Positions 1,159 through 63,618 of a stretch of DNA of 64,000 bases are shown one piece after another (within the stretch, counting starts at the first letter, position 1; each line of letters opens with the position of its first letter). Origin of the DNA: Escherichia coli (GTDB lineage: Bacteria; Pseudomonadota; Gammaproteobacteria; Enterobacterales; Enterobacteriaceae); the NCBI RefSeq assembly GCF_044647545.1, contig NZ_CP172818.1. One strand, written 5' to 3'. The translations under genes were made by a program, and so were the position numbers. The notes under the pieces were generated by a model. That model saw only the letters and a list, made by a program, of their open reading frames with translations, was not told the DNA's origin and searched no databases.

Positions 1159-2147
1159 TTTTTGCGAGACTCCTGAATTAACAAGACGATAAGGTAAATA
1201 CCGCCGAGGCTGACGGTAACGACGCCAACCGGAAGTTGATACGGCATAAACAGTTGTTGGGCGCAGAGATCGGCCGCCAGCAGTAACAACGCCCCGCACA
1301 GCGCCGCCTGGGTCAGCCCCCAGCGAGCGGTGCCGCTAATGCGTCGGGCAATGTGCGGCGCGACTAAAGCAATAAAGGAAATCGGCCCGGCAAGCGCTGT
1401 TGCCGCAGCGGTAAGCACCACTGCAACCAGCATCATTAACAGACGCGAACGTTCGACGCTGACGCCCAGCGCACACGCGGTATCATCGCCCATTTCCAGC
1501 AAGCGCATCCGGCGTACCAGTAAGGCGGCGGCAATTAGCATCAATATAATGATGGGTGCGGAAGGCGAGGTTTTTGCCCACGTCAGGCCGTTGAGCGATC
1601 CGGCATTCCATAAACCCGCTGTTAGCGCCGTTTCTAAAGACGCTTTCAGCAACAGCCAGGTATTAAAGGCCACCAGCATGGCGCGAACGCCGATACCAAT
1701 AATAATCAACCGAAAGGTGTCGATGCCGTTACGCCAGGCGAGCAGCCAGACCAGCAGCGAAGTGACAATGCCGCCCACCATTGCTGCCAGCGCGATAGCC
1801 GTCAGATCCTGACCAAACAGCACCATCGCCACCAGCACGCCGCTCCACGCCCCGGTGTTAAAGCCCATTACGTCAGGGCTACCGAGCGGGTTACGCATCA
1901 GCGACTGAAAAATCGCGCCGCTGACGCCCAGAGCCGCGCCAATTAACAGCGCCATCAGCACGCGTGGTAAACGCCATTCAGTGACCACCATCGTCATACT
2001 GCGCGGCGCATCGCCCATCAGCGCGGCGAATACCTGCGAGGTTTCCAGCGTGACGGTACCGCTGCGTAATCCCCAGATACCTGCAACCACACAGGCGGTA
2101 ATTAGCAGCAAACAGGTGATGATTAATCGGCGAGAGACGTAAATCAT
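1155..2147 (-). CDS. fepG: Ferric enterobactin ABC transporter permease (FecCD family)
   Basis: 330 aa polytopic membrane protein; overlaps fepC and fepD by 4 bp each. Confidence 0.93.
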   Translation of the reverse strand: MIYVSRRLIITCLLLITACVVAGIWGLRSGTVTLETSQVFAALMGDAPRSMTMVVTEWRLPRVLMALLIGAALGVSGAIFQSLMRNPLGSPDVMGFNTGAWSGVLVAMVLFGQDLTAIALAAMVGGIVTSLLVWLLAWRNGIDTFRLIIIGIGVRAMLVAFNTWLLLKASLETALTAGLWNAGSLNGLTWAKTSPSAPIIILMLIAAALLVRRMRLLEMGDDTACALGVSVERSRLLMMLVAVVLTAAATALAGPISFIALVAPHIARRISGTARWGLTQAALCGALLLLAADLCAQQLFMPYQLPVGVVTVSLGGIYLIVLLIQESRKK

Positions 2148-3148
2148 GCGCCACCTCGCGTTTTACGTCGCACGAGGAAGATCAGCACCGGTGCGCCAAT
2201 AAAGGCACTGACTACAGAAACGCGTAACTCGCCGGGCACAATCACCCGCCCGATGATATCGGCAAACAGCAGCAGGGCAGGGGTGGCAAGTAGCGTGACG
2301 GGCAGCGACCAGCGATGATCGGCACCTACCAGCCAGCGCGCCATATGCGGCATCATCAGGCCAATAAAGGCAATCGGGCCAACTACCGCCGTCGCACTAC
2401 CACAAAGCACGGTAATCGCCAGCAGACCAATCAACTGTGTGCGCGCCACGCGGCTGCCCAGCGCCGTCGCGGTGTCACTGCCGAGGCTTAAACTGTTCAG
2501 CGCGCGGCTCAGTAATAGCGCGGTTGCTCCGGCGATCAGCACCGGGATCAGCACAACTTTTAAGGTATATAGATTGCGAATATCCAGCGAACCGGCTTGC
2601 CAGAAACGCAGTTGATCGTAGACGTCAGGATTAAGCAGGGCGATGCCGCTGGTCAGCCCTTCCAGCACCGCCGCCAGCGCCACGCCCGCCAGGGTTAAAC
2701 GCACCGGACTTAACTGCCCGCCGCCCTGGCTGCCGGTAAAGGCAACAATCAACGAGGCCACTAGCGCCCCGGCGAAGGCCATCGCCAGTTGTTCCTGCGC
2801 GGATGAGTATCCAAACAGCGCCGCACCCAGCACAATGGCAAAGCTGGCTCCGGCGTTTACGCCAAGCAAGCCGGGGTCGGCAAGTGGGTTTCGGGTGAGG
2901 GTTTGCATCAACGCCCCGGCAAGGCCAAGCGCACCGCCGGCCAGTAAACCGGCAAGGGTGCGCGGCAGTCGTGCGTCGAGCACGATGGTGCAGTCGGCGC
3001 TCTGGCAGGTGCCGGAGAGGGCCTCCAGCACTACGGAAGCGGGGAGTGATTTTGCTCCAATGAGCAGGCTTAATGCCGTCGCGATAATCAGTAATAACAG
3101 CAATCCGGGCACGGCAATGGCGCGTGTCACGGCAACAGAACCAGACAT
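2144..3148 (-). CDS. fepD: Ferric enterobactin ABC transporter permease (FecCD family)
   Basis: 334 aa from ATG at 3148 (MSGSVAVTRAIAV...); ORF-track start at 3160 adds 4 residues and remains a possible alternative. Confidence 0.9.
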   Translation of the reverse strand: MSGSVAVTRAIAVPGLLLLLIIATALSLLIGAKSLPASVVLEALSGTCQSADCTIVLDARLPRTLAGLLAGGALGLAGALMQTLTRNPLADPGLLGVNAGASFAIVLGAALFGYSSAQEQLAMAFAGALVASLIVAFTGSQGGGQLSPVRLTLAGVALAAVLEGLTSGIALLNPDVYDQLRFWQAGSLDIRNLYTLKVVLIPVLIAGATALLLSRALNSLSLGSDTATALGSRVARTQLIGLLAITVLCGSATAVVGPIAFIGLMMPHMARWLVGADHRWSLPVTLLATPALLLFADIIGRVIVPGELRVSVVSAFIGAPVLIFLVRRKTRGGA

Positions 3149-3160
3149 ACGAACTTCCAT

Positions 3161-3185
3161 GATAATGAAATTAATTATCGTTATC
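3161..3185. promoter_or_regulatory. Fur-box-like sequence in the divergent fepD / entS promoter region
   Basis: gataatgaaattaattatcgttatc resembles the GATAATGATAATCATTATC iron-box consensus; placed between divergent iron-uptake genes. Confidence 0.6.
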
Positions 3186-3258
3186 GATCTTATTTGGATA
3201 TGTTAGCATGTGCAGCCTAAGAATAGGTATTTAAAATATTTGATGGCAAGGCATTGTA

Positions 3259-4509
3259 ATGAATAAACAATCCTGGCTGCTTAACCTCAGCCTGTTGAAA
3301 ACGCACCCGGCGTTTCGCGCAGTATTCCTCGCTCGTTTTATCTCAATTGTGTCTCTGGGTTTGCTCGGCGTCGCGGTGCCGGTGCAGATCCAGATGATGA
3401 CGCATTCTACCTGGCAGGTGGGGCTTTCGGTGACGCTGACCGGCGGCGCGATGTTTGTTGGCCTGATGGTCGGCGGTGTGCTGGCGGATCGCTATGAGCG
3501 TAAAAAAGTGATTTTGCTGGCGCGCGGCACCTGTGGCATTGGCTTCATTGGACTGTGCCTGAACGCGCTGCTGCCGGAGCCGTCATTGCTGGCAATCTAT
3601 TTACTTGGTTTATGGGATGGTTTTTTCGCATCACTTGGCGTTACGGCGCTACTGGCGGCGACACCTGCACTGGTAGGGCGTGAAAACCTAATGCAGGCCG
3701 GGGCGATCACCATGTTGACTGTGCGTCTGGGATCGGTGATTTCGCCCATGATTGGCGGTTTACTGCTGGCGACCGGAGGCGTAGCCTGGAACTACGGGCT
3801 GGCGGCGGCGGGCACGTTTATTACCTTGCTACCGTTGTTAAGCCTTCCGGCGTTGCCACCACCGCCGCAGCCGCGTGAGCATCCGTTGAAATCATTACTG
3901 GCAGGATTTCGTTTTCTACTCGCCAGCCCGCTGGTGGGAGGGATTGCGTTGCTGGGTGGTTTATTGACGATGGCGAGCGCGGTGCGGGTCCTGTATCCGG
4001 CGCTGGCTGACAACTGGCAGATGTCGGCGGCACAGATTGGTTTTCTCTATGCGGCGATTCCGCTCGGCGCGGCTATTGGCGCGTTAACCAGCGGGAAGCT
4101 GGCACATAGTGCGCGACCAGGGTTATTGATGCTGCTCTCCACGCTGGGATCGTTCCTTGCCATTGGTCTGTTTGGCCTGATGCCGATGTGGATTTTAGGC
4201 GTGGTTTGCCTGGCGCTGTTCGGTTGGTTGAGCGCGGTTAGTTCGTTGCTGCAATATACAATGCTGCAAACGCAAACCCCGGAAGCGATGTTAGGGCGGA
4301 TTAACGGTTTGTGGACGGCGCAAAACGTGACGGGCGATGCCATAGGCGCAGCGCTGCTGGGCGGTTTGGGCGCGATGATGACACCGGTTGCTTCCGCAAG
4401 CGCGAGCGGTTTTGGTTTGTTGATTATCGGCGTGTTGTTATTGCTGGTGCTGGTGGAGTTGCGACGTTTTCGCCAGACGCCGCCGCAGATGACAGCGTCC
4501 GACAGTTAA
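3259..4509 (+). CDS. entS: Enterobactin exporter, MFS transporter
   Basis: 416 aa, about 12 hydrophobic segments; divergent from fepD with an iron-box-like sequence between them. Confidence 0.93.
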
Positions 4510-4512
4510 TGC

Positions 4513-5469
4513 TTAAAACAGCGCCTTAAGTCGTTCCAGCACTTGCATGGCGCTGTAGTAATCCAGGCGGAACGTCTCGGTTCCCAGCGCATAAACCTGC
4601 TTGTTTTGTACTGCAGGCAGGTGCGCGAGCAGTGGATTGGCATAAATCGCATCGGCATCTTTCTGATCACCAGCGAACAGGAATAGTGAATCGCCATTTA
4701 ACCCTGCAGCCAGATTTTCTCCACCAAGCTGAATGATGTCATGGCGTTTGCCCTGGCTTTGGCTGGCGTTTAACCCTGCGGGCAATTTCGCCAACGTAAA
4801 GCCGAGTTGTTCCAGCATCTGCCCTTGTGCTGATTCCGGCGTCCAGAGATTGGCACTGTGTGCAGCGGCGGTATAGACAATGGCAGTGACCGGCTGCGGC
4901 GGTAATTTGATTTGCTCTTTCGCCGCCGCCAGTTGCTTATCAAACTGTGCAATCCGCTCTGCCGCTTGTTTCTCATGCCCGGTAATTTCGCCAAGCTGCG
5001 TTAACAGCGACTGCCAGCTTTTGTCGTCGTAATTGATGATTAATGTTGGGGCGATGGTAGAAAGCTGATCGTACAGCGCCAGCGCCGAATCGCCGCCGGT
5101 TGCGCTAATTAAAATCAGATCCGGCATTTGCGCGGCAACGGCTTCGGCGCTCGGTTCGCCGATATAGATCCGTTGCAGTTTGCGTTCTTTCGCCACCTTG
5201 CTCCACTGGCGTAAAAAGCCCTGGTCATCCGCGACGCGGTTATTTGGCGTGGTCGCGCCGCTGGCGATCACCGGAGCATCAATCGCCAGCAGTGAGCCGG
5301 TCAGGGTGACGCTGGTGGAAACTATACGCTGCGGCTGGCTTTCCAGGGTATGAGTGCCCCGGCTGTCAGTAATCTGACGCGGCCAGTCGGCGGCCTGAAC
5401 TGCGACTATTCCTGAAAGCAAAAGTCCTGTTAATAGAAGGGCGTTGCGGTAGAGCGGGGCGAGTCTCAC
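4513..5469 (-). CDS. fepB: Ferric enterobactin periplasmic binding protein
   Basis: 318 aa; N-terminal signal peptide [26 protein letters not shown]; convergent with entS (3-bp gap). Confidence 0.93.
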
Positions 5470-5610
5470 AAATTAGCTTCCTGTTATTAATAGAGTTAAT
5501 GCTTCTCATTTTCATTGTAACCACAAACAGATGCAACCCCGAGTTGCAGATTGCGTTACCTCAAGAGTTGACATAGTGCGCGTTTGCTTTTAGGTTAGCG
5601 ACCGAAAATA

Positions 5611-5631
5611 TAAATGATAATCATTATTAAA
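5611..5631. promoter_or_regulatory. Fur box in the divergent fepB / entC promoter region
   Basis: taaatgataatcattattaaa is a near-consensus iron box; a second AT-rich half-match (ttattaatagagttaatg) lies near 5485-5505. Confidence 0.7.
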
Positions 5632-5657
5632 GCCTTTATCATTTTGTGGAGGATGAT

Positions 5658-6833
5658 ATGGATACGTCACTGGCTGAGGAAGTACAGCAGACCATGGCAA
5701 CACTTGCGCCCAATCGCTTTTTCTTTATGTCGCCGTACCGCAGTTTTACGACGTCAGGATGTTTCGCCCGCTTCGATGAACCGGCTGTGAACGGGGATTC
5801 GCCCGACAGTCCCTTCCAGCAAAAACTCGCCGCGCTGTTTGCCGATGCCAAAGCGCAGGGCATCAAAAATCCGGTGATGGTCGGGGCGATTCCCTTCGAT
5901 CCACGTCAGCCTTCGTCGCTGTATATTCCCGAATCCTGGCAGTCGTTCTCCCGTCAGGAAAAACAAGCTTCCGCACGCCGTTTCACCCGCAGCCAGTCGC
6001 TGAACGTGGTGGAACGTCAGGCCATTCCGGAACAAGCCACGTTTGAACAGATGGTTGCCCGTGCTGCCGCACTTACCGCCACGCCGCAGGTCGACAAAGT
6101 GGTGTTGTCACGGTTGATTGATATCACCACTGACGCCGCCATTGATAGTGGCGTATTGCTGGAACGGTTGATTGCGCAAAACCCGGTTAGTTACAACTTC
6201 CATGTTCCGTTGGCTGATGGTGGCGTTCTGCTGGGGGCCAGCCCGGAACTGCTGCTACGTAAAGACGGCGAGCGTTTTAGCTCCATTCCGTTAGCCGGTT
6301 CCGCGCGTCGTCAGCCGGATGAAGTGCTCGATCGCGAAGCGGGTAATCGTCTGCTGGCGTCAGAAAAAGATCGCCATGAACATGAACTGGTGACTCAGGC
6401 GATGAAAGAGGTACTGCGCGAACGCAGTAGTGAGTTACACGTTCCTTCCTCTCCACAACTGATCACCACGCCGACGCTGTGGCATCTCGCAACGCCCTTT
6501 GAAGGTAAAGCGAATTTGCAAGAAAACGCACTGACTCTGGCCTGTCTGCTGCATCCGACCCCCGCGTTGAGCGGTTTCCCGCATCAGGCCGCGACTCAGG
6601 TTATTGCTGAACTGGAGCCGTTCGACCGCGAACTGTTTGGCGGCATTGTGGGTTGGTGTGACAGCGAAGGTAACGGCGAATGGGTTGTGACCATCCGCTG
6701 CGCGAAGCTGCGGGAAAATCAGGTGCGTCTGTTTGCCGGAGCGGGGATTGTGCCTGCGTCGTCACCGTTGGGTGAGTGGCGCGAAACGGGCGTCAAACTT
6801 TCTACCATGTTGAACGTTTTTGGATTGCATTAA
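5658..6833 (+). CDS. entC: Isochorismate synthase
   Basis: 391 aa from ATG at 5658 (ORF-track GTG at 5646 is an extension); first gene of entCEBAH operon; Fur-box-like sequence upstream. Confidence 0.93.
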
Positions 6834-12778: not shown

Positions 12779-12870
12779 AGTGAGGGGGGATGTTGGCGAA
12801 TGTTGGCATGGTGCCGAGGGTTCCCCCTCACCCTAACCCTCTCTCCTGTGGGGCGAGGGGACTGACCGAG
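12779..12870. repeat. GC-rich imperfect palindromic intergenic repeat element between cstA and ybdD
   Basis: tgagggggga (12781-12790) pairs with ttccccctca (12821-12830), followed by ccctaaccctctctcctgtggggcgagggga; resembles E. coli intergenic palindromic repeat families, family not assigned. Confidence 0.5.
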
Positions 12871-16110: not shown

Positions 16111-17303
16111 TCCTGACGTTTTCCTTTTATCCGTTCGTTATAACGCTGATAGTTCTTCGCTTTCGTAGGACTAAATGATAATGCCCGGCACCAGTAATCG
16201 TTATTGAGTAAAACTTTGCATATTCGCCGCCAGGAGGGGATATCTTTCGCGCCAATGTCCCCTTGCTGGGTTTGTGGAACTTCGATGCCTTTTTTCTGAT
16301 ACCAGTGCAAATAAATGGCGATTTTATTGCGGTAATGCTCAGCTGTTTTTTCCGGCATGCTATTGAGCAGCAATAATGCATATTCTTGCCAGTCTAAATG
16401 TTCTGGCTTGAGGATTTTCCGATGACCATAAAAATGATTATCATGTCCGGCGTAAATGCCGCCACTTTTTACCCCGCTGACTCGTGCGCACATAGCAGCC
16501 CAGCGATCCGGTTCGATAACGTGATAGAGCCATAATCCTTGCCGTTGCTCCGGGCCAAAAGGTTCGCAAATTCGCATATGACGCAGAGGAACGCCTGCCT
16601 GATACATTATATTATACAGTGGGTTACAGAGCTGTTGATGGTTAGCATACCAGGTCCAGATATCAGCCACTTTCCAGTCGTAGATGGGGTAAATGTACCA
16701 ACTATGACCGCCTGGTGCGGCGGTGGTCCAGGGCTTATCATCGGCAAAACGTTGTTTATTTAAACTGGCGATGGCGACAAAACGGTTGTAGGACTCATCT
16801 GCACGGATGCCGATCATCATCGCCGCCGGACGTTTTTGTGAAAACCATTCAGCAAACTCACGCACAAATTGTTCGAAGGTCATGCCAGGCTGGTAAAAGG
16901 AGAAAAAGTCAGGATCGGTTATCGCATCTTGCGGGGGCTGACGCACCCATTCGACATCAGGTTCCCAGCACTGCCATTCGGGTTGGTATTGAGAAAGGGA
17001 ATTTTGCGTCGTAAGCGGGAGCGCAACCCAGTAAAACTCTTCGATGACATCGGCGTAAAACTCACGTAATGACTGAACATAGTTAATAGTGCATGAGAAC
17101 TGCGCTTCCCAGTCGATAAACAAAACGCAGATTTTTTTGCCCATTTGTCGGGCAATTTCGGCGGTCAGATGCAGCATTAATCCGGAATCTTTACCACCCG
17201 AAAAAGAAACGCAGACACGGGGTAGGGTATTAAGTGTCCAGGTAATACGTTCTTTTGCAGCTTCCAGAATATTCAGTGGAAGCGGGATTTTATAAATAGA
17301 CAT
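16083..17303 (-). CDS. ybdN: PAPS-reductase-like PP-loop ATP pyrophosphatase family protein
   Basis: 406 aa; PP-loop motif SFSGGKDS near N-terminus. Confidence 0.88.
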   Translation of the reverse strand: MSIYKIPLPLNILEAAKERITWTLNTLPRVCVSFSGGKDSGLMLHLTAEIARQMGKKICVLFIDWEAQFSCTINYVQSLREFYADVIEEFYWVALPLTTQNSLSQYQPEWQCWEPDVEWVRQPPQDAITDPDFFSFYQPGMTFEQFVREFAEWFSQKRPAAMMIGIRADESYNRFVAIASLNKQRFADDKPWTTAAPGGHSWYIYPIYDWKVADIWTWYANHQQLCNPLYNIMYQAGVPLRHMRICEPFGPEQRQGLWLYHVIEPDRWAAMCARVSGVKSGGIYAGHDNHFYGHRKILKPEHLDWQEYALLLLNSMPEKTAEHYRNKIAIYLHWYQKKGIEVPQTQQGDIGAKDIPSWRRICKVLLNNDYWCRALSFSPTKAKNYQRYNERIKGKRQEWGILCNND

Positions 17304-19303: not shown

Positions 19304-19589
19304 TAATTTGTCCTTTTCAGTCAGTGCAAAAGTCGAGTAAAAGGCATAACCTATCACTGTCATAGGTAAGAGCTTAGATCAGGTGATTGCCCTTTGTTTA
19401 TGAGGGTGTTGTAATCCATGTCGTTGTTGCATTTGTAAGGGCAACACCTCAGCCTGCAGGCAGGCGCTGAAGATACCAAAGGGTAGTTCAGATTACACGG
19501 TCACCTGGAAAGGGGGCCATTTTACTTTTTATCGCCGCTGGCGGTGCAAAGTTCACAAAGTTGTCTTACGAAGGTTGTAAGGTAAAACT

Positions 19590-20282: not shown

Positions 20283-20363
20283 TCCCCGCACCATGATGCA
20301 AGCTGCATCCAGGTAGCCGCAGAGGCCGCTTGCATGATGATGTTTAAAGCCCAGGAGATAAAC

Positions 20364-21929
20364 ATGCTCGACACAAATATGAAAACTCAACTCAAGGCTT
20401 ACCTTGAGAAATTGACCAAGCCTGTTGAGTTAATTGCCACGCTGGATGACAGCGCTAAATCGGCAGAAATCAAGGAACTGTTGGCTGAAATCGCAGAACT
20501 GTCAGACAAAGTCACCTTTAAAGAAGATAACAGCTTGCCGGTGCGTAAGCCGTCTTTCCTGATCACTAACCCAGGTTCCAACCAGGGGCCACGTTTTGCA
20601 GGATCCCCGCTGGGCCACGAGTTCACCTCGCTGGTACTGGCGTTGCTGTGGACCGGTGGTCATCCGTCGAAAGAAGCGCAGTCTCTGCTGGAGCAGATTC
20701 GCCATATTGACGGTGATTTTGAATTCGAAACCTATTACTCGCTCTCTTGCCACAACTGCCCGGACGTGGTGCAGGCGCTGAACCTGATGAGCGTACTGAA
20801 CCCGCGCATCAAGCACACTGCAATTGACGGCGGCACCTTCCAGAACGAAATCACCGATCGCAACGTGATGGGCGTTCCGGCAGTGTTCGTAAACGGGAAA
20901 GAGTTTGGTCAGGGCCGCATGACGTTGACTGAAATCGTTGCCAAAATTGATACTGGTGCGGAAAAACGTGCGGCAGAAGAGCTGAACAAGCGTGATGCTT
21001 ATGACGTATTAATCGTTGGTTCCGGCCCGGCGGGTGCAGCGGCAGCAATTTACTCCGCACGTAAAGGCATCCGTACCGGTCTGATGGGCGAACGTTTTGG
21101 TGGTCAGATCCTCGATACCGTTGATATCGAAAACTACATTTCTGTACCGAAGACCGAAGGCCAGAAACTGGCAGGTGCGCTGAAAGTTCATGTTAATGAA
21201 TACGACGTTGATGTGATCGACAGTCAGAGCGCGAGCAAACTGATCCCGGCAGCGGTTGAAGGCGGCCTGCATAAGATTGAAACAGCTTCTGGCGCGGTAC
21301 TGAAAGCACGCAGCATTATCGTGGCGACCGGTGCAAAATGGCGCAACATGAACGTTCCGGGCGAAGATCAGTATCGCACCAAAGGCGTGACCTACTGCCC
21401 GCACTGCGACGGCCCGCTGTTTAAAGGCAAACGCGTAGCGGTTATCGGCGGCGGTAACTCCGGCGTGGAAGCGGCAATTGACCTGGCGGGTATCGTTGAG
21501 CACGTAACGCTGCTGGAATTTGCGCCAGAAATGAAAGCCGACCAGGTTCTGCAGGACAAACTGCGCAGCCTGAAAAACGTCGACATTATTCTGAATGCGC
21601 AAACCACGGAAGTGAAAGGCGACGGTAGCAAAGTCGTAGGTCTGGAATATCGCGATCGTGTCAGCGGCGATATTCACAACATCGAACTGGCCGGTATTTT
21701 CGTCCAGATTGGTCTGCTGCCGAACACCAACTGGCTCGAAGGCGCAGTCGAACGTAACCGCATGGGCGAGATTATCATTGATGCGAAATGCGAAACCAAC
21801 GTCAAAGGCGTGTTCGCAGCGGGTGACTGTACGACGGTTCCGTACAAGCAGATCATCATCGCTACTGGCGAAGGTGCCAAAGCCTCTCTGAGTGCTTTTG
21901 ACTACCTGATTCGCACCAAAACTGCATAA
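20364..21929 (+). CDS. ahpF: Alkyl hydroperoxide reductase, flavoprotein subunit
   Basis: 521 aa from ATG at 20364 with SD aggag upstream; redox CHNC and CPHC motifs; FAD-binding GSGPAG. Confidence 0.96.
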
Positions 21930-21958
21930 GAAGAAGTAAGATTCACCTGCAATTGCTT

Positions 21959-21990
21959 AGCCGCCGGGGTCAAACCTGGCGGCTTTTTTA
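21959..21990 (+). terminator. Intrinsic terminator after ahpF
   Basis: agccgccgggg / cctggcggct stem followed by ttttttatt. Confidence 0.7.
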
Positions 21991-21995
21991 TTGCA

Positions 21996-22031
21996 TTAAA
22001 AAGCCCTGCAGGGATGGCTCCGGGCAGGGCG
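21996..22031 (-). terminator. Intrinsic terminator after uspG (minus strand)
   Basis: gccctgc ... gcagggc inverted repeat; on the minus strand the hairpin is followed by a T-run. Confidence 0.55.
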
Positions 22032-22049
22032 GGATATTTATTCTGGCAA

Positions 22050-22478
22050 TTAACGCACAACCAGCACCGGCAGATTGGCGTGGCGGATCACGCTCGAGGC
22101 GTTAGAACCCAACAGATGAGTTGAAATTGATGGGTTACGCGAACCAATCACTACTACATCTGCATCAAGTTCTTTCGCTAACTCGTTAACTTCATCCCGC
22201 ACACTACCAAAACGGACATGTTGCTTAATGCGGGAAGGATCGATGGTGAAGTGGCTGACCATCGTTTGCAGACGTTCTTCTGCTTCATGTTGCAGATGCT
22301 CTTCAAAACGACGTACATCAGCGGCAAAACGGTGCAGACTCAGGCTGGCGGACCCCGGTAGTACGTGAAGTAGATGAATAACTCCGTCATCCTGGGCGAG
22401 GAATTCAGCGTGGCGAACCGCTTTGTCGCTCAATTCCATTTCGAAAACATCCACTGGCATGATGATTGTTTTGTACAT
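22050..22478 (-). CDS. uspG: Universal stress protein G
   Basis: 142 aa from ATG at 22478; Usp fold, C-terminal GSRNPS ATP-binding-type motif. Confidence 0.9.
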
Positions 22479-22699
22479 AAGCATTCTCTCCTTGTTTTTG
22501 CATGTTATAAAGAACTAAAGCGTTGTTCAAGGTATAGCACTGCAGCACACAATAATTGCTGCTATGAATATATAAATATGCAGTGATATCGAGAGCTTCG
22601 CTCATATGAGGTTATTCCGCAGATGAATAACCAGTTCAGATTAGAATGCTGCAGCATAAGAGAAAAATGATAAATCTGGATAAATTGATATTTGAGCGG

Positions 22700-22725
22700 A
22701 AAGAGGATGCGAGTGCATCCTCTGG
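22700..22725 (-). terminator. Putative terminator hairpin after rnk
   Basis: Perfect 9-bp stem agaggatgc / gcatcctct with 4-nt loop, 34 bp past the rnk stop; weak U-tract. Confidence 0.35.
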
Positions 22726-23167: not shown

Positions 23168-23221
23168 TTTTACTCCATGTCGTCGGTACTGCGAGTGTCG
23201 CAGATAAACATACCCAAAAGA

Positions 23222-23259
23222 AAACCCTCACCGTCAGGCGGCGAGGGTTTAACTCACAT
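23222..23259 (-). terminator. Intrinsic terminator downstream of rna (minus strand)
   Basis: aaccctc / gagggtt stem; minus-strand transcript continues with ttcttttggg. Confidence 0.5.
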
Positions 23260-23396
23260 GATGATACTGACTGTTGCTCACTCTTTGAAGTGATTTGCGT
23301 CACATTCAGGGAATTCCTCAATGTAGCGCATTATGTATAAATCTTAATCGTCATGGTTTATGGAAGACGAATTAGCGTGTTTTGTAAATCAGAGGA

Positions 23397-35756: not shown

Positions 35757-36317
35757 ATGAACGTGAGTAAATATGTCGCTATATTTTTCTTTGTTTTTAT
35801 TCAGTTAATCAGTGTTGGTAAAGTTTTTGCTAACGCTGATGAGTGGATGACAACGTTTAGAGAAAATATTGCACAAACCTGGCAACAGCCAGAACATTAT
35901 GATTTATATATTCCTGCCATCACCTGGCATGCGCGTTTTGCCTATGACAAAGAAAAAACCGATCGCTATAACGAGCGACCGTGGGGCGGCGGTTTTGGTC
36001 AGTCGCGTTGGGATGAAAAAGGAAACTGGCATGGCCTGTATGCCATGGCATTTAAGGACTCGTGGAACAAATGGGAACCGATTGCCGGATACGGATGGGA
36101 AAGTACCTGGCGACCGCTGGCGGATGAAAATTTTCATTTAGGCCTGGGATTTACCGCTGGCGTAACGGCGCGCGATAACTGGAATTACATCCCTCTTCCG
36201 GTTCTACTGCCATTGGCCTCTGTGGGGTATGGCCCCGCGACGTTTCAGATGACCTACATTCCGGGTACCTACAACAATGGCAATGTGTACTTTGCCTGGA
36301 TGCGCTTTCAGTTTTGA
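35757..36317 (+). CDS. pagP: Lipid A palmitoyltransferase (outer-membrane beta-barrel)
   Basis: 186 aa; signal peptide [25 protein letters not shown]. Confidence 0.93.
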
Positions 36318-36491
36318 GACAAATGAAGTTTTAGTAAATTCTTTAAAATCAACCACTAAAATAATTAACATCAAAAATAACGCGACTTTTATCACTTTTT
36401 AGTAAAGTTGCACTGGACAAAGCGTACCACAATTGGTGTACTGGTAACCGACACAGCATTTGTGTCTATTTTTCATGTAAAGGTAATTTTG

Positions 36492-36701
36492 ATGTCTAAG
36501 ATTAAAGGTAACGTTAAGTGGTTTAATGAGTCCAAAGGATTCGGTTTCATTACTCCGGAAGACGGCAGCAAAGACGTGTTCGTACACTTCTCTGCAATCC
36601 AGACTAATGGTTTTAAAACTCTTGCTGAAGGTCAGCGCGTAGAGTTCGAAATCACTAACGGTGCCAAAGGCCCTTCTGCTGCAAACGTAATCGCTCTGTA
36701 A
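36492..36701 (+). CDS. cspE: Cold-shock-domain protein
   Basis: 69 aa from ATG at 36492; RNP1 motif KGFGFI; ORF-track start 36408 is an extension. Confidence 0.95.
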
Positions 36702-36718
36702 GATACGTCAGCAAGAAT

Positions 36719-36750
36719 TCAAAACCCGCTTAATCAGCGGGTTTTTTTTG
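36719..36750. terminator. Bidirectional intrinsic terminator between convergent cspE and crcB
   Basis: aaaacccgct taat cagcgggtttttttt: A-tract, GC stem, T-tract. Confidence 0.8.
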
Positions 36751-54775: not shown

Positions 54776-55753
54776 TTACAGTAAATCTTCAATCTCACGG
54801 ATTTTTTGACTGACATCCCTGGTACCGGATGACTGAGCTTTACGATACAGATCGAGAGCCTGTCGGAGATCGACAGGTCTTCCTTCTCCGTAATGATACA
54901 TAATGGCAAGGTTATACCAGGCAGTGGCATTATCGCATTCAGCGGCTTTCGTAAACCATTCAAAGGCGGCCTGATAATCTTTCTCAACGCCTTGTCCATG
55001 TTTATACATATAACCGATGTTGACGTAAGCGCCGACGCTTTCCTGAGCGGCAGCCTTCAGATACCAGTACATCGCTTGCTTATAGTCCTGGTCCACCCCT
55101 TCGCCAGCGTTATAATCCCATGCAATTTGAAACTGGGCATGCCGATTACCCTGCTGTGCGCTTTTCAAATACCAGAATGCGGCGAGTGTCTTATTTTGAG
55201 CAACGCCTTCTCCGTCTTTATAGAGATCGGCCAGGTTGTCTTGCGCGTAACTATGGCCTTGTAATGCAGCTTGTTTGTACCAGAAAAATGCCAGCGCATA
55301 GTCTTGTGCGACTCCGTTGCCATTTCTGTACATCCACCCAAGATTATTTTGCGCATAAGACATTCCGCTCTCCGCGGCTATCTGATACCAGGCAACCGCT
55401 TCTTTATAGTTGGGGTCTTCTCCACGATCCTGTATCCAGCCAAGGGCGTTGGAAGCGAAAGTATGGCCTTGTAGGGCAGCTTTTTTCAGCCAAAAGATGG
55501 CTTGCCCATTATCTTTATGACGGCTTTTATCCTCGGTATACTTTTGCCCTAAGGAATATTGTGCTTCACAATGACCTTGCTCAGCGGCAAGCTTCAGCCA
55601 GTAAAAGGCCTTTTCGTCGTCCGGAGAGTCAATTGCGCTATCGCGATTATAATAAAACCCAATAATATATTGAGCCTCGCAATCGCCTTTTTCAGCACGT
55701 TCGATAATCTCATCTATTGATAAATTATCGCAGCAACTTGACGTAAAAATCAT
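54776..55753 (-). CDS. ybeQ: Sel1-repeat (TPR-like) protein, no signal peptide
   Basis: 325 aa from ATG at 55753; tandem roughly 36-aa repeats with recurring A-x-QG-x-x-A-Q-x-x-L-G / YxxG motifs. Confidence 0.88.
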   Translation of the reverse strand: MIFTSSCCDNLSIDEIIERAEKGDCEAQYIIGFYYNRDSAIDSPDDEKAFYWLKLAAEQGHCEAQYSLGQKYTEDKSRHKDNGQAIFWLKKAALQGHTFASNALGWIQDRGEDPNYKEAVAWYQIAAESGMSYAQNNLGWMYRNGNGVAQDYALAFFWYKQAALQGHSYAQDNLADLYKDGEGVAQNKTLAAFWYLKSAQQGNRHAQFQIAWDYNAGEGVDQDYKQAMYWYLKAAAQESVGAYVNIGYMYKHGQGVEKDYQAAFEWFTKAAECDNATAWYNLAIMYHYGEGRPVDLRQALDLYRKAQSSGTRDVSQKIREIEDLL

Positions 55754-55916
55754 TATCATTTCCTTATGGTTGCATATAAAGCATATTATATTTTTATGTG
55801 TTCCATTTTTGCGTAAGCCTTATTTTATGCGTATTATGTTGCGTCAGAAAAGTATAAATAAATGAGCCTCGCAACGTGGTTAATATTCATTGAATGAATA
55901 TTTAAGGATAAATTAT

Positions 55917-62682: not shown

Positions 62683-63618
62683 TTAAGCGTAAAATTTCAG
62701 ACGATCGGCCAGTAAATCAACAAAGCCCTGACGATCAACATCGACCATTACAGTGGCATTCGGTTTATTGCCAGTCAGATAATAATAATCAACAACCGTC
62801 ATACCCTGGGTATATTTCCCTTGTGTTTCCACGCCAACCCAGCGCTCAACAGTGGTAAACAACTCCGGTTTTAACAGCCAGGCGATGGTGCATGGGTCAT
62901 GCAGCGGTGCGCCGACAAAGCCCCATTTTTCGTCTTTATGATATTCGAGGAAGAAATCCAGCAGTTCGGCAACAATGGTTGAAACAGGGTTGCCAATCGC
63001 GCGGAAACGCTCAGTGTCTTCAACGTGGATTTGTGCTTTGTGAGTAACATCCAGACCGGCCATCACCACCGGAATTCCTGACTGGAAGACAATTTCTGCC
63101 GCTTCCGGGTCAACGTAAATATTAAATTCAGCCGCAGGCGTCCAGTTACCAAGCCCCATTGCGCCGCCCATAATCACGATACGGGCAATTTTGCTATGCA
63201 GTTCCGGGTGGCTATTGAGCAGCAAGGCAACGTTCGTTTGCGGTCCGGTAGAAACAATGGTGACAGGTTCCGCACTTTCACGCAGCGTTTTCGCCATCAG
63301 CTCCACCGCCGTACAGTTTTGCGGTGCGAACGTCGGTTCCGGTAATGCAGGGCCGTCGAGACCGCTTTCGCCGTGCACATTGTCCGCGATAATCAAATCA
63401 CGCATTAATGGTTTTACCGCACCGCTTGCTACCGGAATATCGGTGCGATTAAGCAAGGTCAGCATACGCAGAACATTGCGTAAGGTTTTTTCTGGTGTCT
63501 GGTTTCCGGCGGAAGACGTAATTGCTTTGACATCAAGCTCTGGTGAGGCGAGGGCGAGAACGATTGCGATAGCGTCATCATGACCAGGGTCGCAATCTAA
63601 CAGAATTGGCAGTGCCAT
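62683..63618 (-). CDS. rihA: Pyrimidine-specific ribonucleoside hydrolase
   Basis: 311 aa from ATG at 63618; nucleoside hydrolase motif DCDPGHDD. Confidence 0.93.

Follow-up and report, generated by a model that had tools for sequence, protein, structure and literature searches.

The enterobactin gene cluster of Escherichia coli consists of six operons with three Fur-controlled bidirectional regions (PMC4911079), and fes, fepDGC, entS and entCEBAH have been named as strongly Fur-repressed (PMC4676285). Two intergenic regions with divergent promoters, fepD–entS and fepB–entC, lie in the stretch of DNA analysed here, and they raise the question whether the iron-box-like sequences found in them are Fur operators and how such operators would serve two promoters that point away from each other. 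The stretch as a whole, a segment of 64,000 nucleotides of an E. coli chromosome, is called the window in the following. It carries fepC-fepG-fepD, entS, fepB and entCEBAH. According to the RefSeq annotation of an identical genome fepC, fepG, fepD and fepB are located on the minus strand and entS, entC, entE and entB on the plus strand. The genes and the spacer under study are:

2144–3148, minus strand: fepD coding sequence, ferric-enterobactin ABC permease (ATG at 3148; RefSeq annotation of a 100% identical genome and the list of open reading frames).
3149–3258, no strand: fepD–entS intergenic control region, 110 bp, 100% identical to K-12.
3259–4509, plus strand: entS coding sequence, enterobactin exporter (list of open reading frames and RefSeq annotation).
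4513–5469, minus strand: fepB coding sequence, periplasmic ferric-enterobactin binding protein (GTG start at 5469).
5658–6833, plus strand: entC coding sequence, first gene of entCEBAH (ATG at 5658).

As the ATG of fepD ends at 3148 and the ATG of entS starts at 3259, positions 3149–3258 are exactly the fepD–entS intergenic region. Several complete E. coli chromosomes match the 3-kb stretch around this region at 100% identity, and the stretch was found in 5417 of the 5426 complete E. coli genomes. Every base of the intergenic region itself is as in K-12 MG1655, and among the 5416 E. coli genomes containing the region 5277 have it with an identity of at least 99%. In the fepB–entC region the entC-proximal 210 bp are identical to K-12 except for one substitution at window position 5526. 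Both intergenic regions are rich in AT (69% for fepD–entS and 65% for fepB–entC).

From the analysis described below we conclude, with a probability of about 0.96, that the sequences represent the well-known Fur operators by which the enterobactin genes of E. coli are controlled. The fepD–entS and fepB–entC regions are the published K-12 promoter-operators themselves, not mere relatives of them, and are as such already known. The genes next to the operators are those of enterobactin uptake, export and synthesis.

The window was scanned with a Fur position weight matrix. The matrix was made from the best 19-mer of each of eight footprinted K-12 promoters, all of them situated outside the window (fepA-fes, fur, tonB, cir, sodA, fecA, fecI and fhuF; coordinates from PMC2189734 Table 3), and was symmetrised. 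In a leave-one-out procedure the eight sites scored between 10 and 21 bits. The three top scores of the 64 kb were found at 3167–3185 (20.6 bits), 3161–3179 (18.8 bits) and 5495–5513 (17.6 bits), in this order; all other matches were placed on genes by exact sequence look-up. A score of at least 18.8 bits was reached in 2.5% of the dinucleotide shuffles of the whole window. When the 110 bp between fepD and entS were shuffled, the observed maximum was attained in 0.05% of the cases, and for local dinucleotide shuffles of the fepB–entC intergenic region the corresponding value was 0.2%. About 5.5 matches of at least 10 bits are to be expected per shuffled window.

The two best matches together form the core of the fepD–entS operator, onto which the footprint published for K-12 was mapped:

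3161–3185, no strand: Fur operator core, GATAAT GAAATT A ATTATC GTTATC, a hexamer array of the type F-F-x-R-R (matrix ranks 1 and 2).
3130–3198, no strand: mapped DNase I Fur footprint of K-12 (PMC2189734 Table 3, NC_000913.2 621394–621462; the mapped sequence is identical).

The core consists of two overlapping 19-mers with an offset of 6 bp. The left one, GATAATGAAATTAATTATC (3161–3179), has 16 of its 19 positions in common with the classical Fur consensus GATAATGATAATCATTATC and is the sole consensus match with at most three mismatches in the 64-kb window, while 0.03 such matches are expected from shuffles. A Fur box, understood as the 19-bp consensus or as at least three GATAAT-like hexamers or overlapping 7-1-7 repeats, is thus present. 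The centre of the published Fur cluster is located 25 bp from fepD and 86 bp from entS, and the site has been both footprinted and gel-shifted (PMC2189734); in the window this centre is position 3173, the middle A of the hexamer array. For the entS site three Fur dimers and an apparent Kd of 3.0 nM have been reported (Lavrrar and McIntosh, quoted in PMC2189734). The first-pass annotation, which had noticed an iron-box-like sequence between fepD and entS at 3161–3185, was therefore right on this point: the consensus match, the two highest ranks in the scan and a footprint on identical sequence all coincide there.

The promoters served by this operator have been studied as well. In a 2026 study fepD/entS was one of five bidirectional promoters tested, all with divergent start sites 10–23 bp apart; Table S2 of that study gives tgttagcat as the shared −10 region and TTATCG and the complement of ATAGGT as the −35 hexamers (PMC12825309). 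The sequence tgttagcat maps to window positions 3201–3209, and the promoter elements are arranged as follows:

3181–3186, plus strand: entS −35 hexamer TTATCG (mutated as −35 in PMC12825309 Table S2; 17 bp from the −10 element).
3199–3210, no strand: shared near-palindromic −10 core TATGTTAGCATG (PMC12825309 Table S2; 10 of the 12 positions invariant in 21 genera).
3204–3209, plus strand: entS −10 element TAGCAT (the strand reads TGtTAGCAT).
3205 to 3200, minus strand: fepD −10 element TAACAT (the strand reads TGcTAACAT).
3223–3228, minus strand (read from 3228 to 3223): fepD −35 hexamer ACCTAT (replaced by TTGACA in PMC12825309 Table S2; 17 bp from the −10 element; moderately conserved).

At its right end the Fur operator extends into the −35 hexamer of entS. 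Judged from their letters, TGtTAGCAT and TGcTAACAT may be extended −10 elements. Extrapolating from the hexamers, transcription would start near 3216 on the plus strand (entS) and near 3193 on the minus strand (fepD); this predicted spacing of 23 bp falls inside the range of 10–23 bp given above. The region thus shows what characterises a bidirectional promoter with a shared −10 region, that is, opposed and overlapping −10 elements with two −35 hexamers at about 17 bp, the spacing of the starts being a literature-derived value. We conclude that the fepD–entS region contains just one operator, shared by the two promoters whose −10 elements overlap.

In Table S2 of PMC12825309 the labels of the −35 mutants 'fepD down' and 'entS up' appear to be swapped relative to the genomic orientation (window 3181–3229), because the left TTATCG on the top strand must drive transcription toward entS. 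The promoter assignment given here follows the genome geometry and not these mutant labels. A generic promoter scan proposed two other pairs of hexamers, TCGATA-17-TATCAT (3187 to 3159) and TTGCCA-18-TATTCT (3249 to 3220), which we rejected since they are unconserved across genera. The generic scan missed the functional promoters because TAGCAT and TAACAT with their weak −35 hexamers, and likewise the TAGGTT upstream of entC, fall under its thresholds.

For the fepB–entC region the proposal of the first-pass annotation can be refined. Two distinctly protected regions have been described for it and both are listed in PMC2189734; together with the putative promoters the following features can be given:

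5489–5519, no strand: fepB Fur operator, mapped K-12 footprint (core 19-mer GTTAATGCTTCTCATTTTC at 5495–5513, 17.6 bits).
5508–5536, minus strand: putative fepB promoter, −35 TTGCAT (5536 to 5531), 17-bp spacer, −10 GAAAAT (5513 to 5508), proposed from sequence and hexamer conservation.
5568–5596, plus strand: putative entC promoter, −35 TTGACA (5568–5573), 17-bp spacer, −10 TAGGTT (5591–5596).
5604–5652, no strand: entC Fur operator, mapped K-12 footprint (PMC2189734 Table 3; sequence identical to K-12; contains 5611–5631).
5604–5640, no strand: core array of the entC operator, GAAAAT ATAAAT GATAAT C ATTATT AAAGCC TTTATC (F-F-F-x-R..R).

An iron box for fepB and entC had been assigned to 5611–5631. 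This sequence does lie within the entC operator; fepB has a separate operator at 5489–5519, which the annotation had overlooked. We conclude that the fepB–entC region contains two distinct operators, one per promoter, and that 5611–5631 belongs to entC only. The fepB operator has a hexamer array of the type F-F-x-R-R at 5495–5519, and its core TAATGCTTCTCATTTTCATTGTA is the same as in K-12. The mapped footprint agrees with K-12 over its right 22 bp and departs from it in the left 9 bp. Two Fur dimers and an apparent Kd of 8.6 nM have been reported for the fepB site (Lavrrar and McIntosh, quoted in PMC2189734).

The first-pass annotation had suggested a scan with a Fur matrix as a check on both of its sites. 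As stated above, the scores are high at 3161–3185. At 5611–5631 they are modest for each single 19-mer, and it is as a phased cluster that the site stands out. The entC cluster consists of overlapping 19-mers 6 bp apart, starting at 5604 (8.2 bits), 5610 (10.9 bits), 5616 (9.9 bits) and 5622 (4.6 bits), which are singly unremarkable under the small eight-site matrix. Four matches of at least 8 bits within the fepB–entC intergenic region, three from the entC cluster and the one at 5495, were not obtained in any of 2000 local shuffles. In addition, TGATAATCATTATTA at 5615–5629 is the best 7-1-7 Fur-box match of the window with a single mismatch. Because a score of 10.9 bits is reached about five times per shuffled window, the case for the entC site is built on the cluster, the 7-1-7 match, the conservation described below and the footprint.

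The putative starts, again extrapolated from the hexamers, would be near 5603 for entC and near 5501 for fepB, about 102 bp apart. In the work of Brickman et al. from 1990 the two starts were reportedly found roughly 103 bp apart, in agreement with this estimate. TACAAT (5519 to 5514) was considered as the −10 element of fepB and rejected; its distance from the conserved TTGCAT is only 11 bp, and it is itself unconserved. At all three operators the Fur site overlaps the promoter of an iron-acquisition gene or lies just downstream of it, when the predicted starts are used. A search of Rfam at gathering thresholds gave no match in either intergenic region.

Relatives of the locus were collected by scanning one genome per species with a degenerate DNA pattern that encodes an EntS motif of 10 protein letters. 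The scan yielded 120 loci, mostly from Enterobacterales, and in 100 of them fepD is located divergently upstream of entS. In these 100 loci the 250 bp upstream of entS were scored, and the median of the highest Fur score is 22.1 bits. A match of at least 14 bits is found beside the fepD ATG in 90 of them; it stays next to the fepD start in loci with a longer intergenic region as well, and in 86% the fepD-side match outscores the rest of the locus. In an alignment of 21 genera the blocks 3160–3168, 3175–3185 and 3199–3210 and the entS ribosome-binding site are invariant or nearly so, while the bases in between vary freely. The first two blocks are conserved to 95–100%. Within the entS −35 hexamer positions 3181–3184 are invariant, 3185 is conserved to 86% and 3186 is variable (48%). 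Among 58 fepB–entC regions the entC-proximal match reaches at least 10 bits in 83% and the fepB-side match at least 14 bits in 69%. The conserved blocks of this region fall on the two operators and on the promoter hexamers: positions 5612–5625 and 5636–5639 of the entC operator are conserved, the fepB operator is kept across genera, and in 17 genera the TTGACA of entC is invariant and TAGGTTA nearly so. The Fur sites are hence conserved in the orthologous promoters.

Two other explanations were weighed against Fur operators. First, the blocks could be conserved for the sake of the core promoters or of another DNA-binding protein, with Fur playing a minor part. The right end of the fepD–entS operator overlaps the −35 hexamer of entS and the fepB operator overlaps the −10 element of fepB, so that at these places conservation alone cannot separate constraint on the promoter from constraint on the operator. 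However, the conserved positions 3160–3179 reach well past the promoter hexamers and have the symmetry of a Fur box, the entC array is situated downstream of the −10 element where no promoter element is expected, and the Fur footprints and the gel shift provide direct evidence (PMC2189734). We regard this explanation as highly improbable. Second, the matches could be accidents of AT-rich sequence between genes, of no consequence for regulation. The AT content of both regions and the further Fur-like matches in AT-rich parts of the window (at 16430, 54972, 55745 and 62778) might be quoted in favour of this explanation, but it can practically be dismissed, as local shuffles attain the observed maxima in only 0.05% and 0.2% of the cases, about 20 genera share invariant motif positions and differ at the intergenic bases around them, and footprints have been published on identical sequence.

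The further Fur-like matches are found at several places. One is situated at the start codon of ybeQ (55745–55763, 14.8 bits) and a 7-1-7 match with two mismatches is located inside the same gene (54972–54986). For K-12 a Fur cluster at position +2 of ybeQ has only been predicted (PMC2189734); the score level of the ybeQ matches is compatible with chance in AT-rich DNA. Two more matches are intragenic, one in ybdN (16430–16448, 14.3 bits) and one near the 3' end of rihA (62778–62796, 12.0 bits). Altogether the window contains five 7-1-7 matches with at most two mismatches, compared with 0.24 expected from whole-window shuffles, an excess that is probably inflated by local AT-rich patches.

With the two regions read as canonical Fur operators, regulation would proceed as follows. 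Under iron-replete conditions Fur dimers loaded with Fe2+ would occupy the GATAAT-like hexamer arrays overlapping the promoters and would thereby bar RNA polymerase from them. The fepD–entS operator, with its core at 3161–3185 and its footprint at 3130–3198, adjoins the fepD start and would cover the −35 hexamer of entS; on the other side it would also cover the start of the fepD promoter and the early transcribed region, roughly the first 60 bp. Because the array covers both divergent promoters that share the −10 core, a single Fur array would silence fepDGC (uptake) together with entS (export), and one operator may in this way exclude the polymerase in both orientations. In the fepB–entC region the promoters would stand back to back about 100 bp apart, each with an operator of its own; the entC operator (5604–5652) would extend from the transcription start downstream, and the fepB operator (5489–5519) would lie over the −10 element and the start of fepB. 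Upon iron starvation Fur without metal would leave the DNA and all four transcription units would be switched on together. The exact transcription starts and the steric mechanism are what we infer for these promoters, and Fur binding and iron regulation at the operators would be as described in the literature on the K-12 sequence.

The window strain differs from K-12 in the leader of fepB. In K-12 the ribosome-binding site of fepB is separated from the fepB operator by an inserted GC-rich repeat of 186 bp, whereas the window strain has no repeat there (window 5470–5500); accordingly the fepB–entC intergenic region measures 374 bp in K-12 and 188 bp in the window strain. The left 9 bp of the fepB footprint differ because of the repeat junction: in K-12 they are repeat sequence, and the window strain has AATAGAGTT at this place. 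The K-12 repeat contains GGGAGAGGGTTAGGGTGAGGG, the G-quadruplex-hairpin motif 'HPG1', and presumably belongs to the boxC repeat family. Copies of the repeat are found at a median of six places per genome. For K-12 the HPG1 motif has been listed at this place between fepB and entC, with about 15 further sites elsewhere (Kaplan et al. 2016, PMC5100583). A second copy similar to HPG1/boxC, GAGAGAGGGTTAGGGTGAGGG, with one mismatch, was observed in the cstA–ybdD intergenic region of the window (12825–12845, minus strand), where an HPG1 site is also listed for K-12 (Kaplan et al. 2016, PMC5100583).

With a junction-spanning K-12 query and a coverage of at least 80% the K-12-type allele was detected in 2723 of the 5426 complete E. 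coli genomes. Since half of the genomes lack the repeat, the K-12 fepB–entC region, on which most published work is based, does not stand for E. coli as a whole. The short fepB leader of the window strain looks ancestral, because other genera mostly have intergenic regions of 175–190 bp. For the K-12 leader stretch of 236 nt a fold of −98 kcal/mol is predicted (z = −4.6). For the short leader, which measures about 32 nt from the putative start, the prediction is about −2 kcal/mol; this leader would be essentially unstructured. On the basis of these folding models one could speculate that the two leader alleles lead to a lineage-specific difference in the post-transcriptional control of FepB synthesis below the same Fur operator, an idea that we consider rather unlikely.

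Other elements were observed elsewhere in the window. At gathering score Rfam reports a thermoregulator of the cspA type upstream of and within cspE (36301–36749, plus strand), the rnk leader (23213–23321, minus strand) and the small RNA STnc70 between dsbG and ahpC (19437–19530, plus strand). Compared with strain FDAARGOS_497 the window shows indels of 3 bp and 77 bp in the ahpF-uspG-rnk part (about 20300–22700), and the ent region is 100% identical.

The present analysis serves as a sanity check: a textbook element was recognised that couples the synthesis, export and uptake of enterobactin to the iron supply, and no new biology is claimed. The first-pass annotation had called coordinate Fur repression expected for this locus and not novel. 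This judgement holds, because the identity to the K-12 sequence together with the published footprints and gel shift covers both sites; DNase I footprints exist for fepD–entS, fepB and entC and a gel shift for fepD–entS (Chen et al. 2007, PMC2189734). The closest known system is the K-12 fepDGC–entS (fepD–ybdA) promoter-operator (Christoffersen et al. 2001; Lavrrar et al. 2002, cited in PMC2189734), with which the window shares the 110 bp, the operator centre, the −35 hexamers and the shared −10 region. There is no difference between the two control regions; the window strain, another E. coli, has the very same element. With the K-12 fepB–entC region (Brickman et al. 1990, cited in PMC2189734) the window has in common the same two protected regions, the entC operator and promoter, and the core of the fepB operator. 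Finally, the fepD–entS region has the overlapping opposed −10 elements, the near-palindromic core and the flanking −35 hexamers of the symmetric promoters with a shared −10 region described in PMC12825309 and in earlier work, among which fepD/entS is a listed member.
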